64,000 bases of DNA from Schmidtea polychroa (taxonomy: Eukaryota). The notes beneath the pieces were generated by a model. It was not told the DNA's origin. It ran no database searches and saw only the letters and a list, made by a program, of their open reading frames with translations. The first letter of the stretch is position 1; the number at the start of each line of letters is the position of its first letter. The position numbers and the translations under genes are program-made. The stretch spans positions 84,258,001 to 84,322,000 of the forward strand of contig CM097885.1 of assembly GCA_044892525.1 (NCBI GenBank), written 5' to 3'. Of this stretch, positions 4,037-63,025 are shown piece by piece.

Positions 4037-4857
4037 AAACAAAGACGAGATTTTAGAAGAGGGATTATCGAAAAAGAAAATGCAAAAAGGAAAATTAACG
4101 AGATTGAGAAACAAGATTCTCAACGATATAAATGGGAAGAATGTCAGCGAATGGTTGGACGAATATGAAAATCAAAAGGAGAGTCTAGAGGAAGAAATGA
4201 GGCATCTGAGAAGTATCAGTAAAAAATTGCAAAGATTGGACATCATTGCTGTATTCGATAAAGATGTGTAATTGATCGAAGAAAAGCATCAAATGATTGG
4301 TGGCAAAAAAGGCAAATCAATCTTTTAAAGAATGAGAATGATGAAACAATCAAGAAAATAATGCAGTGCCTAAAAGAAGACTGGAAAGCCTACAAAAGAT
4401 TACAATACCTGTCTTTGAAGGTAAAATGAAAGAGTACGGACCATGTGAAGAAGCTTTTACTGTGTGTGTAGACGAAGTAAAATGGAGAAAATATAAAAAA
4501 GATATTTCACCTGCACAAGTACTTTTACGTAGATCCATTAAAATTAATAGAAAACTTAGAATATTCGGCAGAGACCTATCAAATGGCTAAAGAGAACCAG
4601 AATAGACTATATGGTAGGGATGAAAGAATATATATCTATCAATGTTAGAGAAGATGGACAAGTTCAGGCCAATTCGAGAAGGAGACATGAAGGATTTAGA
4701 TTTGTTTGTTGGACTATTAGAAACAGTCACTGTTCGCTTTAAATTCACTGGAAAAGAATCCGAGTTGAAGACTGGATGTCCTTTTCAAATATTTTTGGGA
4801 AGATTAACCACAAATATGTTTTACAAATGGAAGAAAGCCAAATGGAAAAGGTCTTGA
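4037..4857 (+). mobile_element. Degenerate BEL/Pao retrotransposon gag (DUF1759-type)
   Basis: [12 protein letters not shown], then LQKITIPVFEGKMKEYGPCEEAFTVCVDE, and after a frameshift FHLHKYFYVDPLKLIENLEYSAETYQMAKENQNRLYG...DKFRPIREGDMKDLD. These match Pao Gag motifs and are paralogous to the Gag piece at 52236-52418. Stops and frameshifts are present. Confidence 0.75.
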
Positions 4858-6189
4858 CTCTAGATAGCGTTAAGGTTAGTTTCACGAATTCTAACCATTT
4901 TCGCGGTGTTCCGTTGTCGTCTGTGAAATAGTTGGGGATATTTGTTTTTGGATTGATTATTGAATTAATGGTATTTGTGTTTTCTGTGCTGCTGTTTGGG
5001 TTGAAATAATAGTTGGTGCTTTACGATTTCTGAGTATTTTCGTAGTTGTTGGGTATTTGTAGAATATTTGTTGGGTTTATTTGGTTTGATGCCATTATTT
5101 TGTTTGTTGATGTTTCTTTTATTGATTGCTGTGCTAAAGAAAATTGAGTTTGTTCAAGGATATGGCTTACTGTGTTCAGTAAAAGAGTCACTATCCTTTA
5201 TACTTTACTTTTGTGTTTTACTTTACAGTGTGCTTTACTTCTGACACCAATTATATTATGTTGTCTTATTGTTATCAGTTATTTATTATTTATCGTGTTC
5301 TTGTTGTGATCTTATTATTATTAATTAATCATTAGTTCTTAGTAGGTTGTTCAAGGTTATAGGATATATTAATTTTATGAATTGTTTCCCGGCTATTTTG
5401 TAACTTTTTATGTGAAGAGAATGCGTAGAGCCCGGCAGAGTCTCTAGTAAAAATATGTGGTGGGACAGTCGGGGTACTTGTATATATTGCTTTATACAAC
5501 CTGAGTGGAAAAAATACTAAAATAATAACAAAATAATAACGAAATGTAACTAACGAATAATGTTTTAATAAAAATCAAAAAGAAAAAAAAATAATTAAGT
5601 ATTTTCGGTAATACTTTCGTATAGTTCGTCTAGAATACTTTCTTTTCCTCAGCTCGATAATTCGGGGTCGAATTCTTCGTTTAAATATACAGAAGATAGA
5701 CACGAAAAAAATATATTTGATTTTGATATCTTTTTCATTATAATAATATTTATTTTTACTTTCTTTGTCTTGAATGTTCTTTTACAATCACTTGTGATCT
5801 TTAGCTTAATATCTTGAATGATCTTTGCCAATGATTTGTAATCTTTGGTTTAATCTGTAGACTTTAATAGACTTTAATTTTTCTAATTTCTTTTTCTTGA
5901 TTGATTTTTTTCGTATTTTATATTTTTCGATTTTGTGAATTCTCTATAGTAAATTATTACTATGGAGAATTAATATATAGGTCTTTTAATTATATCGCGG
6001 GGTCCATGACTCGAATTAAGTTAGATCGAGTATTTTGTATTTGTATTAAAAAATATATATATATTAACCATTAACTTTATTTTACAAATACAAATTACAA
6101 ATATTTAAAAGGGTATGCATTACAAGCATATAATAATTTAGAGTGCAAGGGTAGAAAGCCGAGCCGAGTAACGAATTTAAAGCGATATC

Positions 6190-8213: not shown

Positions 8214-11476
<3,263 letters not shown>

Positions 11477-14320: not shown

Positions 14321-15908
14321 TGTTGGTTACTTAGGGGTGTGTCATTTTGAATTTTAAATAAGTTAGGGGTAATCATAGGTATTCACTCGACTCTTTCCTA
14401 ATCACCTCCATGACTATTGTACTTTAAACCATTTGTATACCCATGGCGACGACCATGTTGGTACTGTACACAAAGGCGAAAAAACAATGAGCAGGTGAGC
14501 TATATTGCTAAAACTAGTCCCCATTGTATTTTCTCTTCGGGTTCTAGACGGCCGATAGAAGGTCTTACGTCATCGATCATTTTCTATTTCTACTTTTTTA
14601 TCTCAGTCGGCTATGGTCCTCATTTCTAGATGTTTTCTATTGTTTCTTTTCAAAATTTTGTGCAGGGATGCGCCCTTATTTTTCTATTAATAAAGGTTGC
14701 TAGGTATTTTTCTTGATATTTATGAATATTTAACCTATCTCGCAAAAAAATTGAGCAGGGATTAGCCCTAATTTCCAAGTTAATCCAATCTTGCCATAAT
14801 ATCTAAATTGTCCTTCAAAAAATTTGAGCAGGGATCTGCCTGTATTCTTAGTCCTAACCTATTTCCGACTAGAAAATACTTACGGAGACGGACCAGGGGA
14901 GAAGCCTCCTCGTTATGGTCCGATCAATCCGTGTGAATCTGAAAAGCCAAATGACCTACTCGCAATAGGAACAACTAGTGTCATTTAATGCTGTGGCCTA
15001 CTGGATTCCAGTTCCACTATAACTATTATTCAAAATTTATTAACGCAAAAGTTGAACCGAATAAAAATTATTATTTAAAACTTAAAGCTAAATGAAATTA
15101 AACAATTAAAAAGGACAACAAAAAAAAATTTAACTAAAAAATTAATTGCATGTAAGATTTATTAAAATAAATCATTTCGTAAAAATTACAATAAAAATAA
15201 AAAATAAATTACCAAATCCACGCTGGCATAAAATCGAAAACTGAGAGCTTTACTGTCTGCAAATTAAGTTGTGATGTTGAAAAAAAGTTTTTTTTCAAAT
15301 GAATTTGTAATCAGTATTTATACTGATTTTGAATGCGCATTCATGCATTCTCTGCCACTCTATCCAATCAGAGTGCGAGAAATTTTGAATTAATTTTGCA
15401 CACATGCATGAATGTGTGCAATTATTTATTTATTTTCATTTTATAAATTTAATTAATTAATTATTTATTAATTTTAATAATGTAATTTTATAAATTTTAT
15501 AATTTAAATAATTCGAGTTATTTAATTTTTATTAATTTAAACACTTTTATTCTTAAATTTAATAAGTTACATAAATCTAACCATTTAATTCTATAAACTT
15601 TACAATTTACCTAATGCTAACTAATTTTATTATTTTGACGATTTAATTTTTATATCGTTCAAATAATTTTCAAATAATTCTATTTTACATTTTATTATTT
15701 TTCTATCGAAAATTTTTTAAGTGTTGAATTTTTCTGTTAAATTTATTTATCTCTTTATTCTACTATACGGGGTTTATTGATTCTTAATGTGTGATGTGAC
15801 TTATTTTATATTAAACCTTGATCATAAATTTTTTCAACTTTGCGGTTTTTGTGTTAGGTATTTTCGATCGATTAAAACAAACTCTCAGTTCTCGGTTTCA
15901 GCCCAACA
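14321..15908 (-). mobile_element. Copy of the unclassified TGTTGG/CCAACA element family (solo-LTR-like)
   Basis: Begins TGTTGG at 14321 and ends GCCCAACA at 15908, with an exact CTAT duplication at 14317-14320 and 15909-15912. Segments 14890-14990 and 14440-14575 are reverse-complement homologues of 59720-59830 and 62305-62440. Confidence 0.8.
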
Positions 15909-17402: not shown

Positions 17403-18360
17403 TGTTGGGTCGTACTAAGAACAAGATCACTTAAGTGTCTAAGGGAAAAGCAGAATTATCGTTAGATAGATGACATCATGACTATCGAATATAATCACCT
17501 GCAAACTCGTGGAGACGGTCATGTTGGTACTGTATGCAATAGTTGGAGATAAACAGATAGTTGATCTTCATCGCCAAGACTAATCTCTGCTTGACATTCA
17601 CCTGGAGATTAAGACTGCCGGTAGAAGATCTTATGTCTCTTAAAAAATCGATTACTGATAATTATTAATAGTCTCTTCGGAACGTGGACTAATATTAAAG
17701 CTATTGATAGTAATGTGTATAATCATCGATATTTCTCGTGAACTAGCTGAATTAGGGCGAATTTATAAAATATCCAAGTCAAATACCGCATTTTGGATGC
17801 ACTACCTTTTATTCCGGAGCGTTCGACGTTGATGTTCAAGCTCAGCTTTTGGAGCTGGAACAGATGAAGGGGTGGCTACCATGCTGACATTGATAAATAG
17901 CAGAGGGCCACTAGGCACTATAGAGGAGGATGGAATACCGGAGGAATGACCACTGTCCAAAAGATGGTTGGAACAGGATGTTCACGGAGTGCTTCTTTGG
18001 TCATGTTGACTCCATGTCGGCGAAATGATAAATCGGAATCACGTTTGCTAACTCCTACAGGAAAAGATTTGGGAACCTGTATCGCAACTCGGCTTTTGTG
18101 TAAATTCGATGGAGAGCGATAGCCTGCTCTTGGATTAAGTTCCTCTGAGCCGGACTTTCGTCGATTAAATTGTCTCTACGAGTCGGAGTTTTTGTTGTAT
18201 CTATTTCATCTTTGATGACGTGAAACACGTAACTCGAGACGTTCGATTTTTTGCGTCCAAAAGAACAAACCTTTGTTTAACCACTTCTTGTATAATCATT
18301 TCATTTTTGTTGGAGCACGAGAAACAAGGCTATAGGACTGCCTTCGAGTTTAGCATTTTC
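17403..18360 (-). mobile_element. Partial copy of the TGTTGG/CCAACA family with a degenerate PCFSC ORF
   Basis: Starts TGTTGGGTCG at 17403 and carries the shared motif at 17510-17640. Minus-strand translation from about 18355 (MLNSKAVL*PCFSCSNKNEMII...FTSSKMK*IQQKLRLVE) aligns with ORF 61216. The second end was not found. Confidence 0.7.
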
Positions 18361-28990: not shown

Positions 28991-29103
28991 GAATCCAACA
29001 GTGGATTTGCTCTCAATGTCATTATCTATGATCATAATTTTTGAGAACTGAAAAGAATGTGAGTTATCGCGCATATCTAATTTTAAGTTTAATCATTGAT
29101 TTA

Positions 29104-30108
29104 CAGAGTTATTCAAAACTATATATTCCTTTATTCAATACTATATATTCATTTATTCAAAACTATATATTCATCTATTCAAAACTATATATCCATTTAC
29201 TCAAAGGTATGATGAAATAATTAATATGCATGATATAATGACTATTACTGTTTGTTTGTTTAATTGGTTTTTAAAGAACGTTAAATATTAAAATTCAAAA
29301 GGCGTCCATGGCAAGGAAGAGTCGCAAAATGGTAACTGTTGAAATGGCGGAAACGATTATTAGAATGGCGCAAAATGATAATATGAAAATAAAAGATATT
29401 GCAACAAGCTTGGATTTCAACAGACAAACTATTCGAAAAGTTTTATCTGATAATAGGAATGGGAGGACATTTGTTGAGGCGAATACTAAATTCAAACGGA
29501 GTATTTTAGAGCGAAATCGAATATTTAATGAAAATGAGCAAGCGCTTTTCAACATAGTGGGTTTAAATAATAGCTTAATTCAAAGTGAGATGAAAGAAAA
29601 AATATCCGAGCAAACTGGAGCAGTAATTTCACAGCCAACAATATGCCGAAAATTGAAAAAACTGAAAATAAGCAGGAAACGACTCTGGTTAATTCCAAAT
29701 GAAAGGAATTCAACAGCAAATATTGAAAGGCGAGCACTATATTGCGCAGAAATTGTGAGAATCCCAAGGGAAAACTTAATATTTCTGGATGAGTCTGGGT
29801 TCAATCAACATCTCAGGCGTGCTTATGGATATTCGAATGTTAACACCCCCGCATTTATATCCGTGCCGGGGAACCGCGGAGTGAATAGGAGTTGCATGTG
29901 TGCCATTGGAAATATATATATATATATATATATATCATGCATATTAATTATTTCATCATACCTTTGAGTAAATGGATATATAGTTTTGAATAGATGAATA
30001 TATAGTTTTAAATAAATGAATATATAGTTTTGAATAAATGAATATATAGTATTGAATAAAGGAATATATAGTTTTGAATAAATGAATATATAGTTTTGAA
30101 TAACTCTG
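29104..30108 (+). mobile_element. Internally deleted IS630/Tc1-mariner element with long modular TIRs
   Basis: TA duplication at 29102-29103 and 30109-30110. TIRs begin CAGAGTTATTCAAAACTATAT and are built of about 21-bp subrepeats. ORF 29308-29967 has HTH regions and LIFLDESGF, then ends in (TA)n without the second Asp or the Glu. Confidence 0.9.
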
Positions 30109-30225
30109 TAAAAGTGATTGACAACCCATACAAAAGAATCCCATTAAAAATATTTATTTAACTTAGGAAATTATGTAATCGACACAAATAATTAATTATA
30201 ACAATGTATCATTTTGACGAATAAT

Positions 30226-54447: not shown

Positions 54448-56344
54448 ATGGTGAATCAATAAGGAACAATGTACAGTGTAACAAACAGATGTGTTCGAGT
54501 GGTTGAACAGAGATAGCAACCTGAGATAAAGACTCATTATTAATTTCCCCTTGTTCGAGGAAACCACCTGGAGATATAGCTTATAAATTGTTTGAAATTT
54601 CTCCATTATTGCTATTTTCAATTAGTTATCACTATTTCAGGTAAGTGCTTTTTAATTCAAATTAATATATTATTTGCAGATTTGTTTATGAATAGAAATT
54701 TAGAAAGAGGACTAATATTGAGATTTTATATTTCGAAGTTTTCTTTACATTTCCAAGGAATATTTGGAAAAATATAAAGATATTAGCCAATTATGCAAAA
54801 AAATAAACCGATACATTTATTTGACGGCAGGTTATTTACAAATTCCAAATGGCACTCTAGAGAAGATATAGAAGACATGTTGGCTGATGATATTCAAATT
54901 ACAACATTTTCAAAGAATACAATTGAATATCAACAAATGATGATTGTAAAGGAAAGAAATCAGTTATTGGATGGTTAATTTAGGTAAATGAGAACAAACA
55001 ATCGGCCCTCTTTAGGGCCACCATCATGATTGTGATTTAATTAGTAAATATTTGGTTTATTGGATTTTACTGTCTACCCTTTAGTCTACCCGTGTAATAT
55101 TTAGATGAAATGAGAATAAATAATAGATTGAATATTCGTTTATAGATAATAATAGTTTTTTGTTTTGGGTGATTGTCTACATTTCTCTAAAAGTTGATAA
55201 ATAGGAAAGAGTGAAAATACTTGATAATAAAGAAAGAAATTAACTCTTATTTAATAAGTTAATGTGGCCTAATTCAAGACTAAGCAGGATCAGGGGTGCT
55301 CACTTTTGTTTTCTACTACCGCGCAACATCAACGTCGCGAAGGGTGTGGTTTGGTAATATCGTGTTTATAGAAGGATTACCTCTGTTGAGATAGAAGCCA
55401 TGACAATAACTGATTTACAGCTTTTCATTAGAAACCAACAAAACAGGGGTAGGTCAACGGACACAACCCAATGCAAAAATAAAGTACATTCTTTTAGGAA
55501 GATAAATTGAAGATAAAATGATGTCAAAAAATTTAATTGCAATCATGCTTTAACTTCATTGTCGGGCTAAAAGAAACACCATTTACCGATTTAGTTCGAA
55601 CACCAGAAGCAAAGCAATAGATGTTGAAGAATTTCTCTAGCTGAGGTGACAAATTTCAATGTGAATATTTCAAATTAGTGAGGGAGTACATGTGTAATGG
55701 TCCACTGTAAAAATCACACTGTAGTAAGGCCTATTTTGGTCTTAGGCATTTTTAAATACGATGCAGTGAGTGTTAAATCTATCTGAACAGAAAAGCAAAA
55801 ATTTGAGAAACAAGGAATAGCAAAGCAAAAGAATTAGGCAGAGTTACACATTGACTTAAAACCCTGTAAAATTCCAATGTTTTAAGTGAGATAAAAATAT
55901 TGTAAAAAATCCCTGAAACTGAATCCAAAAAAAGCCTCACTATAGTGTGCTCCTGCTCATTCAAAAATCCTGAGATCCTAATCTATTTCAAAAATCCCTG
56001 AGACAAGAATACTTAATTATCTTCACATTGACTTAACATAGTGGCATCCTATATAAAATAGCCTAAGCATCAGATAGATTTAACGCAGTGGTCTCCTGCG
56101 ACATAAGAAAGGCTTGAGATCAAAATAGGCCAATCAGTGCTAGACCTGTCTAAACTGTGGATGTATCAACTGCAATATAATGAATTAGCAAAATATAGAT
56201 CTGAATTCCTATGTGATATAAATATCGTTGCCAGCGATACTGATTCGTTTTTTCTTGAGGTTAAGCACTGTAAGCTAGACACTCTTTTGCCGGTAATGAT
56301 ACGAGATAATCTTCTAGATACCTCTAATTATGAACCCGCACACC

Positions 56345-58879: not shown

Positions 58880-61800
58880 TGTTGGGCTGGAAAGTAAAAT
58901 CATAATTTAAAAAGCTTAGGAAGAAAACAATAAGAAATAAAATAAGAAATTGGAAACAGATCAAAAATAAATAAAAATCAAGACAAATAAACAATAAGAA
59001 TAAATAATAACAAATTAGCCAAAGAGAATTAAAACAAAACATAAAAAATGAAAAATTAAGATAAGAAAACCGGAAAAAACAGTAAGATAATGGAAATTAA
59101 ATAATAAATAAGAAAATAAATAAAAAATAAAAGAAAACAATAAGGAAACACTAAGAAAACCACGAAAAACAAAGAAAACAAATTAAATTAAAAATTTACA
59201 CCACGCTCAATTTTGATTGACTCGCATAAAAACAAAATTAGGTATATAAGGGGAACACTGAATCAGAATATTCAGTGTTAACCCAACGATTCTTAAGGTA
59301 CACAGAGCATTCTAGGATCAATCAACAGGACTAAATCAGAATCAATTATTAATTTCCGACGACAAATCACTCGTGGACTTCAATTTGGAACTTTAGCGAA
59401 ACAGTAGTTAGTGAGATAAAAAGTAAATTTTTTTTTACTGTATCTAAAGTTTTTAAGTTACTATGAATGAATTAAAATAAATTTATGCTTGGAAAAGGGT
59501 TCCGTTTCTTTTGTTCATCAGTAATTAATGGTATTAGTAAAATTTTCAGTTATTTAATGCCTCGAATACTTGTAATTATCTATTTAGAATAAAATTTTGA
59601 TACAAGTCGGATTCTATTTAATAATTTAGTATCTTGTATACATTTTGTAGAAAAGTTCAATAAAGTAACATTTTGAATTTCATTATAATGATGATAGTGC
59701 ATGATGCGAATCTGAGGTTCGGCTGGCCACCGCTCGAGGGACGCTGGTTGTTCCTCTTGCAAGAAGGTCGGATGTGACTTCAGAGGCGCAGTGGTTGAAA
59801 TGGGTCATCGTGGGGGCTTCCTCACTGATCTATCACCACAGGAAGGAGAAGTGTGGTTTTAGGATCATAAAACCGAAAATAAAATGACGAAAATGAATAG
59901 AGAGTAACACAGTTGTGCAGCATGAGGAAATCACCAACTTTCGCAATGAGTAAGGTAGCCGGGATATCTTTCGTTTAGTACCGATTCAAAAAGCGAGCAT
60001 CCAGTAGTCATCGTAGTTTGAGCCATCTGAAAGTCCAATCTGACGTTAGTTTCTTTCTGGTGAAAATTCTGATCTATATATCGTAATCGGCAAGACTATC
60101 GTAAAGTAGCAAGAATCATAAATCGAGTACAATCTTTTACGCTCATGGTGAATGGTCATCGATATCTAAATTGTCTTAGAATTGTTGAAAATTTCGAATT
60201 TAGACCTCGTCGAACTATCAAACTTGTCTTGAGGAACATTCTTAGTGAAATGAAGCAAAGATCCGAATCTCGATATAGACAATTCCATAGTTTCAGATAA
60301 TCAGACATCCATCGATCGGTGATGTACTTTGAAGAAAATATACAATATTAAAATCCAACTGTGTAGGTTCTTGCGTACCGTGGTCGATAATTCCGTCACT
60401 TAGATAATTTGATAAGGCACTACTGAATCGTGGTATGAACCAAATACACCTTGGTAAGGATATACAATATAATGCTCCTCAGTTGTTGAAATCGCACGTA
60501 TAATCGCACCTGGATAATCAAGTAAACACCATCACTCACACCGACTGCTGCTATCGATTTATCTATCGCGTGAAATAATTACATATGGAGATTCTACTAA
60601 GCGAGTAACCGAGTGGTCATTATATGATAAAAACCGACAGCTAACTACGGGATATCGATAATCATTGCAAACGGCGACCGTACAGTAGAGAGTGAATTTT
60701 TGTCATAGAATTAACTCATAAAATGTACTTCGGTGAAAAGTTAACTAAAGATTTTAATAATAAAAATTTTACTTGTAACGTAATGGATATTGTTTTAATT
60801 CATAATTTAATAACCAAAGATTGAACTAAGCAATTACCGTTATTGAATCTCCAGGGGAATATCTCGTTCGATAATAATAATCAAGGGCTCATAAACGTCG
60901 TAGGGGTTAACTCTAGACTTATGGTTATTGTCTACTTGGAGGAATCCATTGAATCTTAGTAAAAATTCTGAGTGGCCGATCTAGCCCAGCGGATAATGAT
61001 TTGATATTTTTTATTATTATTACAATTATTTATTTAAATTTATCCAGGTTCCGATGTTTTCTGGTTTGTGTTCAGGATGATATGTGTGTGTTGATTTCCT
61101 TTCACGTTAATATGATCTTCCTTTCTAATAAAACGATGGTTGATTTAGTATGATGGCAGTCATGAGATGGTTAAATATAACTCATTCTTAATAGAATTTT
61201 ATTCAGCTTTTCAAAATGTCCAAGGTTTCAACCACCACAGTCATACGTCCCTGTTTCTCTTGCACGGACAAAAATCAATTAATACAGACGCTCCAGACCC
61301 AAAATGGCCTCCTGAAAAAGAAATCCGACCATTTAGAAGGGACGTACTTTTCCCCAAGTCAAATGAAGGAGGTGCGAATAAGGCTTACCCGAGTAGAAAA
61401 GTGTAGGGACGATGTGCTAGAAGAGAATCGCGCTTTACGCACCCTTATTAAAGAGCAGTCGGAAGCGTTACATAGGGTGTTCGTACAAGCTTCCATCACA
61501 CGCAAAATCGTCAATATTCCACTCGCGGAAGAAGATATCTGTTCCCGTCCCACCACCTTTCCGGGATCTCGTCAATGAAGCCATTAAATCAGGCCAACTT
61601 AAATCAATCGAGCATTCCTCAGCCGACAATTCCAGCCAAAATCGTCTATACCGGCACAAGTCGCGCTGACCCCAGGGTAGTGGATTTAACCGCCCCGGTC
61701 ACCCTTCCGGAGGTGAAAAAGATCAAGAAACGCCGGCAGCCATCTGGGGCCGAGCGTACCAAAAGAAGAAGGGCCCTTCAGGCCGAAAGAGAAGCGGCGC

Positions 61801-62575
61801 TGATCGCACCTGTTCAACTATCAGCTACACTACCTCCTGCGGAGTCCACCTCGCATTCCCTTCCCATCTTCCGGGTAGTCCCGCCCGTCGATTCCTCATG
61901 GGAAGAAAACGCTAAAGACTTTTTCGATCTCGGTGAGATCTTTGCCAGAGCTTCTCCGAATACATTATGATCTACATCCCTGTTCATTCTCAAAAATTGT
62001 GTAATTCTATAAATGTAATTTCTTGTAATAGTTCGTCAATAAATTTTTCTGTTGTGACTTGACAAATTAAATAATTTTGAATGTTCGATGGATGATGAAT
62101 GTTTGAACATGAAGTTGAGTAATGAATGATGAGAACAATGGGTAGGAAGGATTGGATAAAGCTGAATTTAGGGAGAATGGAAGTGATGATCATGGGTTGG
62201 AACTTGCTGTTGAATGCGAAATAAAGACAAAATTAGTGAGTTGAGTGTTGTGGTGGAGGTTGATTTCAAAGCGGAATGTTACATGAAATCTTAGAATGAT
62301 GTGTATGACGTAAGTCCTTCTATCGGCAGTCGAGTGTTTGTTAAGTCGAGTTACGATGGGGGAGCAGTGCTAAGGCAGGGGCTCACCTGCTCCATCGTAG
62401 CTCGCCGACGTGGCACAGTACCAACATGATGTAAATCATGGGTGTCATGTTCGGAGTATGATCGTGTGGGTTTTGGTTAAGGGTCCCGTGGAATGATGAC
62501 ATACTATGTGCGCGGTTAGGACTATCAACCCCTAGAGCAAATAGATCATTTTCTGATCCGACCCAAGACCCAGCA
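58880..62575 (+). mobile_element. 3.7-kb unclassified element with TG...CA ends and CTAT TSD
   Basis: Starts TGTTGGGCTGG and ends GACCCAAGACCCAGCA. CTAT at 58876-58879 and 62576-62579. Excision restores polB ...AAT GAT ACT ATG AGG GCT AAG GGG GTA (NDTMRAKGV). No internal direct LTR pair and no long TIRs. Confidence 0.88.
61216..61970 (+). CDS. Element-encoded protein of unknown function (two overlapping ORFs 61216-61578 and 61575-61970): CxxC + coiled coil + basic and Pro-rich segments
   Basis: GC-elevated open frames. PCFSC motif and following residues are conserved with the copy at 18355-18170. Basic NLS-like KKIKKRR...KRRR. ATGA overlap at 61575-61578. Confidence 0.55.
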
Positions 62576-63025
62576 CTATGAGGGCTAAGGGGGTAAAATT
62601 AACGGGGACAGAGATTGGGTACCAGTCATATTTAGACTGCTACAATAACGTAGAATTTTGAGTGCCGCAAACTAGGATAGGGACGCGAACCACCAGCTAC
62701 ATACAATCAAAAATAGTAAAATCGCATTGACAAATAACGATGACAAGCGATTACGGGTAGGGAAAATACTAGTATCGCATTTGGGCATTATTTTTGGGGT
62801 TGATGCTGTAGATAGTGATCAAGTATTGGAGGAAGTTCGACCGCTTTGTGGAGGTTTTAGCCCAGATTTCGATGATAGTATCGATATAGATGATATATTA
62901 TTAACAGATGATGATGATGATGAATATTATTAAATATATCTTCTTTAAAAACTAGACTTTTAATATGTTCATTTTTATTTTTTATTGGTATATTGAAAAC
63001 TTTGATAGTTTTCAAGTTTAAACAT

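Follow-up and report, generated by a model that had tools for sequence, protein, structure and literature searches.

A few retroviruses and yeast elements are known to have structured leaders, and structured U5-PBS leaders are already known as a kind. Among the closest described systems, the A-rich loop of HIV-1 pairs with the anticodon of tRNA-Lys3 (PMC11181671), and HTLV-1 selects a single UGG isodecoder although several tRNAs have the same 3' end (PMC11251516). Like the HIV-1 PBS segment, the present motif has an unpaired conserved loop upstream of the PBS that is complementary to the primer anticodon, as recognised from sequence and predicted structure; unlike the segment portrayed in the passages of PMC11181671 and PMC11251516 that were available, this loop lies within a covarying domain of 150 nt and three stems, 110–175 nt from the PBS, with a T-loop-like hairpin and no sequence relation, and the pairing is putative. 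The second comparison is stem I of the T-box riboswitch (PMC4574755, PMC6197855, both available in part); in the motif as in stem I, an internal loop of 8 nt holds a codon with a purine after it (for the motif CCA and then A, in 48 of 53 rows), and a T-loop-like element lies nearby. It differs from the T-box in lacking a conserved loop E or K-turn (AGUA-like bases vary) and an antiterminator, in having no Rfam match and in residing in a eukaryotic retroelement; as to the interdigitated double T-loop, one T-loop-like loop is present and no second is evident. In plant retrozymes, too, each LTR bears a conserved RNA motif, which is retained by non-autonomous elements that depend on Ty3/gypsy (excerpts of PMC4918200), but the motif described here has no hammerhead core, and its host elements measure 15–36 kb and include autonomous ones.

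The window, a stretch of 64,000 nt from Schmidtea polychroa (assembly GCA_044892525.1, contig CM097885.1, positions 84,258,001 to 84,322,000), was described in the initial annotation as holding three divergent copies of a module with two shared islands. Both island patterns match exactly at all three sites (3/3 each) and occur exactly three times in the window, and none of 100 shuffles gave three matches. The count of three stands, but the copies are members of three LTR families, for which the searches gave approximately 1,327, 2,150 and 19 candidates, respectively (Table 1). Both ends of the LTR carrying copy 1 are common to 11 other copies, and one copy is preceded by sequence found before the 3' LTRs of full elements. 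The family of copy 2 includes full elements with a PBS, and their LTR pairs are 99.3–99.9% identical; for the family of copy 3, a genome search for a full-length element or a PBS found none. When folded singly, the copies gave weak results (sense z of −2.1, −1.4 and −0.06 for copies 1, 2 and 3), so that the case for a structure rests on the comparison of families. The solo LTRs in the window probably carry the motif as a passive remnant.

Table 1. Positions of the motif copies, their parts and their host LTRs within the window.
Feature	Position	Strand	Basis or remark
Solo LTR, 3,696 bp, Burro-type family, carries copy 1	58880..62575	+	TG...CA ends, 4-bp target duplication
Hairpin P1/P2 of copy 1, T-loop-like loop UUCUA(UC) at 62318-62324	62307..62331	+	loop bases 94-100% conserved in 53 non-redundant rows
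Long hairpin P3 of copy 1, invariant AGU:GCU helix, CAC bulge at 62384-62386	62348..62403	+	covariation, MFE
Hairpin P4/P5 of copy 1, internal loop of 8 nt (62417-62424) facing a single G, with CCAA at 62421-62424	62405..62454	+	two-sided changes
Terminal hairpin P6 of copy 1, closes at LTR end	62466..62574	+	predicted fold, z −3.35 for 62340-62575
Context region: motif, LTR end and flank	62217..62699	+	element boundary at 62575
Broken accessory ORF within copy 1 LTR, two frames here	61216..61970	+	AATAAA follows at 62038
Solo LTR, 1,588 bp, 15.5-kb non-autonomous family, carries copy 2	14321..15908	-	TG...CA ends, 4-bp target duplication
Copy 2 of RNA motif, CCAA at 14458-14461	14419..14577	-	covariance-model match of 124.5 bits; close relative in training set
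3' fragment (~380 bp) of old LTR family, carries copy 3	17403..17783	-	~70% identity to other genomic copies
Copy 3 of RNA motif, decayed, CCAA at 17524-17527	17485..17643	-	model match of 105.8 bits, many broken pairs; itself in training set

In the 781-Mb AT-rich genome (four large contigs), the strict pattern of the first island gave at least 2,501 exact matches and a pattern for the second clade gave 353. Of the fetched loci in which two motifs lie on the same strand at a distance of 14 or 26 kb, five of seven turned out to be two-LTR elements with a PBS, as did two of two more. This PBS is an 18-nt complement of the 3' end of tRNA-Pro; it was missed when a gap of 0–3 nt was assumed because the spacer after the 5' LTR is 7–8 nt long. 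The host elements are Ty3/gypsy LTR elements by their TG...CA ends, short target duplication, direct repeats around gag-pol and PBS after the 5' copy, and the two-LTR elements with a PBS rule out a Penelope-like or DNA-transposon origin. The large ones reach approximately 30–36 kb, and the one scanned against Pfam contains, in order, gag, fusion glycoprotein, protease, reverse transcriptase (RT), RNase H, integrase and ankyrin repeats. The Burro/GYPSM1 giant Ty3/gypsy elements of planarians share this domain layout, the likeness comprising giant size, a fusion glycoprotein between gag and protease, and ankyrin repeats (PMC6431247); the large elements are accordingly Burro-type, an assignment made by size and domain layout. 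The published passages of that source cover proteins and sizes and no LTR RNA structure, and those of PMC8532177 mention Burro expression only. RT homologues in the prokaryote and viral collections searched had 60% identity at best.

Several other features of these elements were recorded. The young 15.5-kb non-autonomous family has one ORF of 877 codons with a zinc knuckle and no pol; within the element interior (4181-4870), some stretches match contigs of high depth that show loose ends and a GT..AG-like joint, which suggests captured pieces of host genes. Across clades, the sequence that precedes the 3' LTR is conserved but not purine-rich, so plus-strand priming looks atypical. Young copies of the large LTRs contain an accessory ORF of about 250–260 codons (one at 9133-9924), which follows a splice-acceptor-like site and has a poly(A) signal of its own; it matched no Pfam family above the cut-off.

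The motif, of approximately 150 nt and three stem-loops, lies near the 3' end of the LTR at a nearly constant distance, the interval from T-loop to end being 238–261 nt in six LTRs and about 200 nt in the second clade. It was found ahead of the tRNA-Pro PBS in 59 of 60 PBS-anchored LTRs (30/30 and 29/30), a count judged from printed sequences with most of the variant ones confirmed by the covariance model; the single miss is interrupted. TATA-like and AATAAA signals lie upstream, and from these signal sequences, as opposed to mapped RNA ends, the motif appears to be placed in U5, downstream of the LTR poly(A) signals. Contigs of presumed-RNA runs span it, a type of contig that cannot show strand or ends. 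When six LTRs were compared pairwise, several families, among them that of copy 1 and that of the non-autonomous LTR, matched one another in the motif segments and nowhere else; the second-clade LTR matched no other at E 1e-4, yet its motif scores highly with the covariance model. A search of viral contigs for the motif gave no match, and a metagenome search gave one, which carries no covariance-model score. A target preference for the motif was considered and rejected, as a second copy lay within 1.5 kb in 8 of 100 loci, not clearly above the local density; around an older LTR family, motif copies of other families lay within that distance in about 10 of 28 loci, more than the 8 of 100 for young families.

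For the analysis of covariation, 287 raw instances (195 distinct, some spurious) were reduced to 39 hand-picked natural representatives, false hits and most decayed copies being left out, and these were aligned without structure information. In this structure-blind alignment, 88.1% of the 885 cells of 23 proposed pairs can pair, compared with 69.4% after shuffling and 36–43% when slid, a result favoured by the pairs having been derived from the same 39 sequences. Changes on both sides were seen in 20 of the 23 pairs and in 12 of 13 pairs of P4/P5, and the top covarying column pair out of 11,803 is a pair of P3 (z 11.4, four pair types). When 89 matches were realigned to the covariance model, two-sided changes appeared in 36 of 38 pairs, the alignment in this case being fitted to the structure. 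On a tree of 53 rows, each under 92% identity and with a mean of 54%, structure pairs underwent 108 co-changes against 42±5 (maximum 57) for matched column pairs. P3, P4 and P5 are well supported, and P1/P2 is the weakest helix with 0–2 co-changes per pair. The covariation that the initial annotation had proposed to look for in many copies is thus strong, and its proposal that a functional RNA structure lies close to the end of the element is supported across families, with the end being the 3' end of the LTR, followed in full-length elements by the tRNA-Pro PBS. The motif is very probably a selected RNA structure of the Burro leader.

The details of the fold depart in part from those first proposed. 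The spacer between the islands, described as poorly alignable, can be aligned and holds YAGU and GCUCAC as two further conserved islands, while a hairpin makes up the first island. The long stem in the spacer was confirmed for copies 1 and 2 and in the comparison of families. Copy 3 is decayed: its TAGT/ACTA pairing is specific to that copy, and its short second stem is broken. Among single-sequence folds of 12 families (z −0.8 to −4.1), nine showed the 8-nt loop and ten the terminal hairpin at the LTR end. Of this last hairpin, P6, the predicted structure is kept and the sequence is not. The P6-like hairpin also pairs the 7–8-nt pre-PBS spacer in 10 of the 12 family folds, so that in the predicted folds the spacer between LTR end and PBS pairs back with U5. 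The invariant unpaired parts are the UUCUA loop, which we take to be T-loop-like, the CAC bulge and the A...CCAA loop, in which CCAA itself is present in 48 of 53 rows and the three bases before it vary. In an old family outside the model (18 decayed copies), RNAalifold recovered the AGU:GCU hairpin and P5, not P1–P4, and proposed another long-range pairing; by eye, P3, P4 and mostly CCAA are kept. Three further candidates were discarded: a splice donor at GTAAG, which the second clade lacks; loop-loop pseudoknots of CUA:UAG and CC:GG, whose variants do not compensate; and a GAG:CUC register in P3, which the second clade does not keep and in place of which AGU:GCU was adopted. Rfam gave no hit at E 5 in the window and none at E 10 in eight family loci. 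In the literature searched, which excluded subscription papers, Repbase, supplements and the primary Burro paper, neither a description of the motif nor one of Burro with an RNA structure was found, and a search within the same limits for a retrotransposon together with primer tRNA, anticodon loop and T-box found none. A covarying fold of 150 nt across many animal Ty3/gypsy families with otherwise unalignable LTRs is a rare and well-defined test object, and its covariance model can also be used to flag, in planarian genomes, thousands of LTR copies together with the non-autonomous elements that depend on them.

The reading we favour, to which we assign a probability of roughly 0.45, is that the fold, within the genomic RNA of the element, serves as a platform for choosing and loading the primer, tRNA-Pro(UGG), the binding being predicted. 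With the motif in U5, only full-length genomic RNA would bear it beside a PBS, and folding of the terminal hairpin P6 would place the two near each other. The CCAA loop, a codon CCA plus purine, would pair with U33–G36 of the anticodon loop of tRNA-Pro(UGG), the T-loop and the CAC bulge would make tertiary or Gag contacts, and non-autonomous elements would keep the motif since they would need the same machinery in trans. CCAA is complementary to U33–G36; of the eight conserved 4-mers, it is the one that finds a single Watson-Crick match in the UGG tRNA, within the anticodon loop. Two of the eight match somewhere in the tRNA, which is about chance level, and the exact register has a chance of approximately 2% for a match that amounts to 4 bp and was noticed after the fact; two of the three invariant loops have no tRNA partner in these data. 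Alternatively, CCAA could pair with UUGG at the PBS start.

The genes for tRNA-Pro(UGG) and tRNA-Pro(CGG) (9 and 11 copies read) have the same acceptor end but not the same base at the site whose copy is PBS position 18. Among 1,063 PBSs, this last base is of the UGG type in 1,044 and of the CGG type in 19, against gene matches of 1,057 for UGG and 616 for CGG, with about 590 of 2,269 acceptor-end matches assigned to neither. The bias could follow tRNA abundance, or the 18th base pair could make it reinforce itself. CCAA is kept in 18 of the 19 elements with a CGG-type PBS, and CCGA loops are sporadic. The 13 LTR-end junctions with a non-standard PBS comprised eight point mutants of the same PBS and five without a recognisable one, and no family using another primer was found, so that no switch of the loop with the primer was seen. 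Both kinds of tRNA-Pro gene occur in tandem arrays of hundreds of copies, with periods of 475 bp (UGG) and 442 bp (CGG); two patterns for tRNA-Pro(AGG) genes matched none in the genome.

A bolder version of primer recruitment would make the motif a T-box-like RNA in which CCA plus A grips the anticodon of tRNA-Pro(UGG), in the register of the T-box specifier (as given in passages of PMC4574755), and the T-loop docks on the tRNA body, giving a protein-independent receptor that discriminates between isoacceptors with identical acceptor ends. We regard it as unlikely; if true, a eukaryotic retroelement would have evolved a dedicated tRNA receptor. The motif opens primer selection among tRNAs with identical 3' ends to a direct test that needs only a short RNA.

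That Gag, independently of the tRNA, reads the fold as a signal for packaging or dimerisation is possible, if on the unlikely side, and fits nearly as well as primer recruitment. The invariant loops would then make intramolecular tertiary or protein contacts, and the position and conservation data fit equally; retention of the motif in the non-autonomous family agrees with this role, and the invariant AGU:GCU base pairs suggest a docking surface. On the other hand, there is no conserved self-complementary loop, as the middle of the 8-nt loop varies, and the isoacceptor bias is left unexplained. Retroviral packaging cores lie mostly downstream of the PBS, a location that also argues against such a signal here. 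The initial annotation, which had listed a packaging or priming signal among its options, was right as to the class.

The poly(A) signals that precede the motif in four large LTRs would accord with a regulator of 3'-end formation, termination or export, acting 100–280 nt past AATAAA/ATTAAA and controlling read-through into full-length RNA. We consider this improbable, because the motif is identical in both LTRs (pairs 99.3–99.97% identical) and alone cannot distinguish them, the nearest signal is approximately 500–600 nt off in the non-autonomous LTR, and the distance from motif to LTR end, with its range of 238–261 nt, is far more constant. Still less probable is a new self-cleaving ribozyme that would cut both LTR transcripts in the manner of the hammerheads in plant retrozymes, for which PMC4918200 gives the LTR precedent. 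Its size and its pattern of covarying stems and invariant loops fit, and GCUCA opposite YAG, with equal tolerance of U/C, resembles 8 of the 11 bases of the twister-sister-like core as given in parts of PMC11620745; in contrast to that core, the motif lacks the G and C opening the 5-nt strand, has a 1x3 loop inside a helix where the core has 5x6, and pairs the would-be triple G with U in the helix. Moreover, a cut between the inferred R region and the PBS would lose the terminal repeat for first-strand transfer unless an RNA of 15–35 kb were circularised. Rfam gave no match to hammerhead, HDV-like, hairpin, twister, pistol or hatchet ribozymes in the window or the eight family loci, in line with the initial annotation's statement on the first three; none of the six cores fits the motif. 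Cleavage, which that annotation had also proposed, has gained no positive evidence.

Action as DNA, by a fold of the minus strong-stop strand or as a protein site in the LTR, is very improbable. The minus strand is single-stranded during reverse transcription and the antisense fold is lower in energy in 3 of 12 families, but wobble pairs number 94 in the sense against 30 in the antisense orientation (60 against 30 without the invariant pair) and include one nearly invariant U·G pair, a bias that favours sense RNA as the folding strand and disfavours the ssDNA structure put forward earlier, and a plain double-stranded site is incompatible with the covariation. The idea that the islands are what is left of an antisense reading frame (CWYC...LPIE), with a register kept in copies 2 and 3 and copy 2 open between the islands, can practically be dismissed: at the sequence level this coding is refuted by frame variation among young families, as the island distances fall in all three frames (25, 18 and 8 of 51 rows), the tetrapeptide takes 17 forms, stops occur in 13 rows and copy 3 has internal stops. 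A count of 2 open rows out of 51 is unreliable, since the frame used for it started upstream of the tetrapeptide and copy 2 is in fact open.

Other features of the window and its LTRs lie apart from the motif. A histone 3' stem-loop-like match at 54999-55044 (E 0.0026) scored below the Rfam gathering score, and a Tc1/mariner-like element at 29100-30112 has long inverted ends of 22-nt repeats that flank a transposase-like ORF. Two Burro families and the non-autonomous family have a second conserved LTR segment in common (positions 865-1015, 82–93% identity), and a hairpin-rich stretch is found at the corresponding place of the window LTR, at about 59690-59810.
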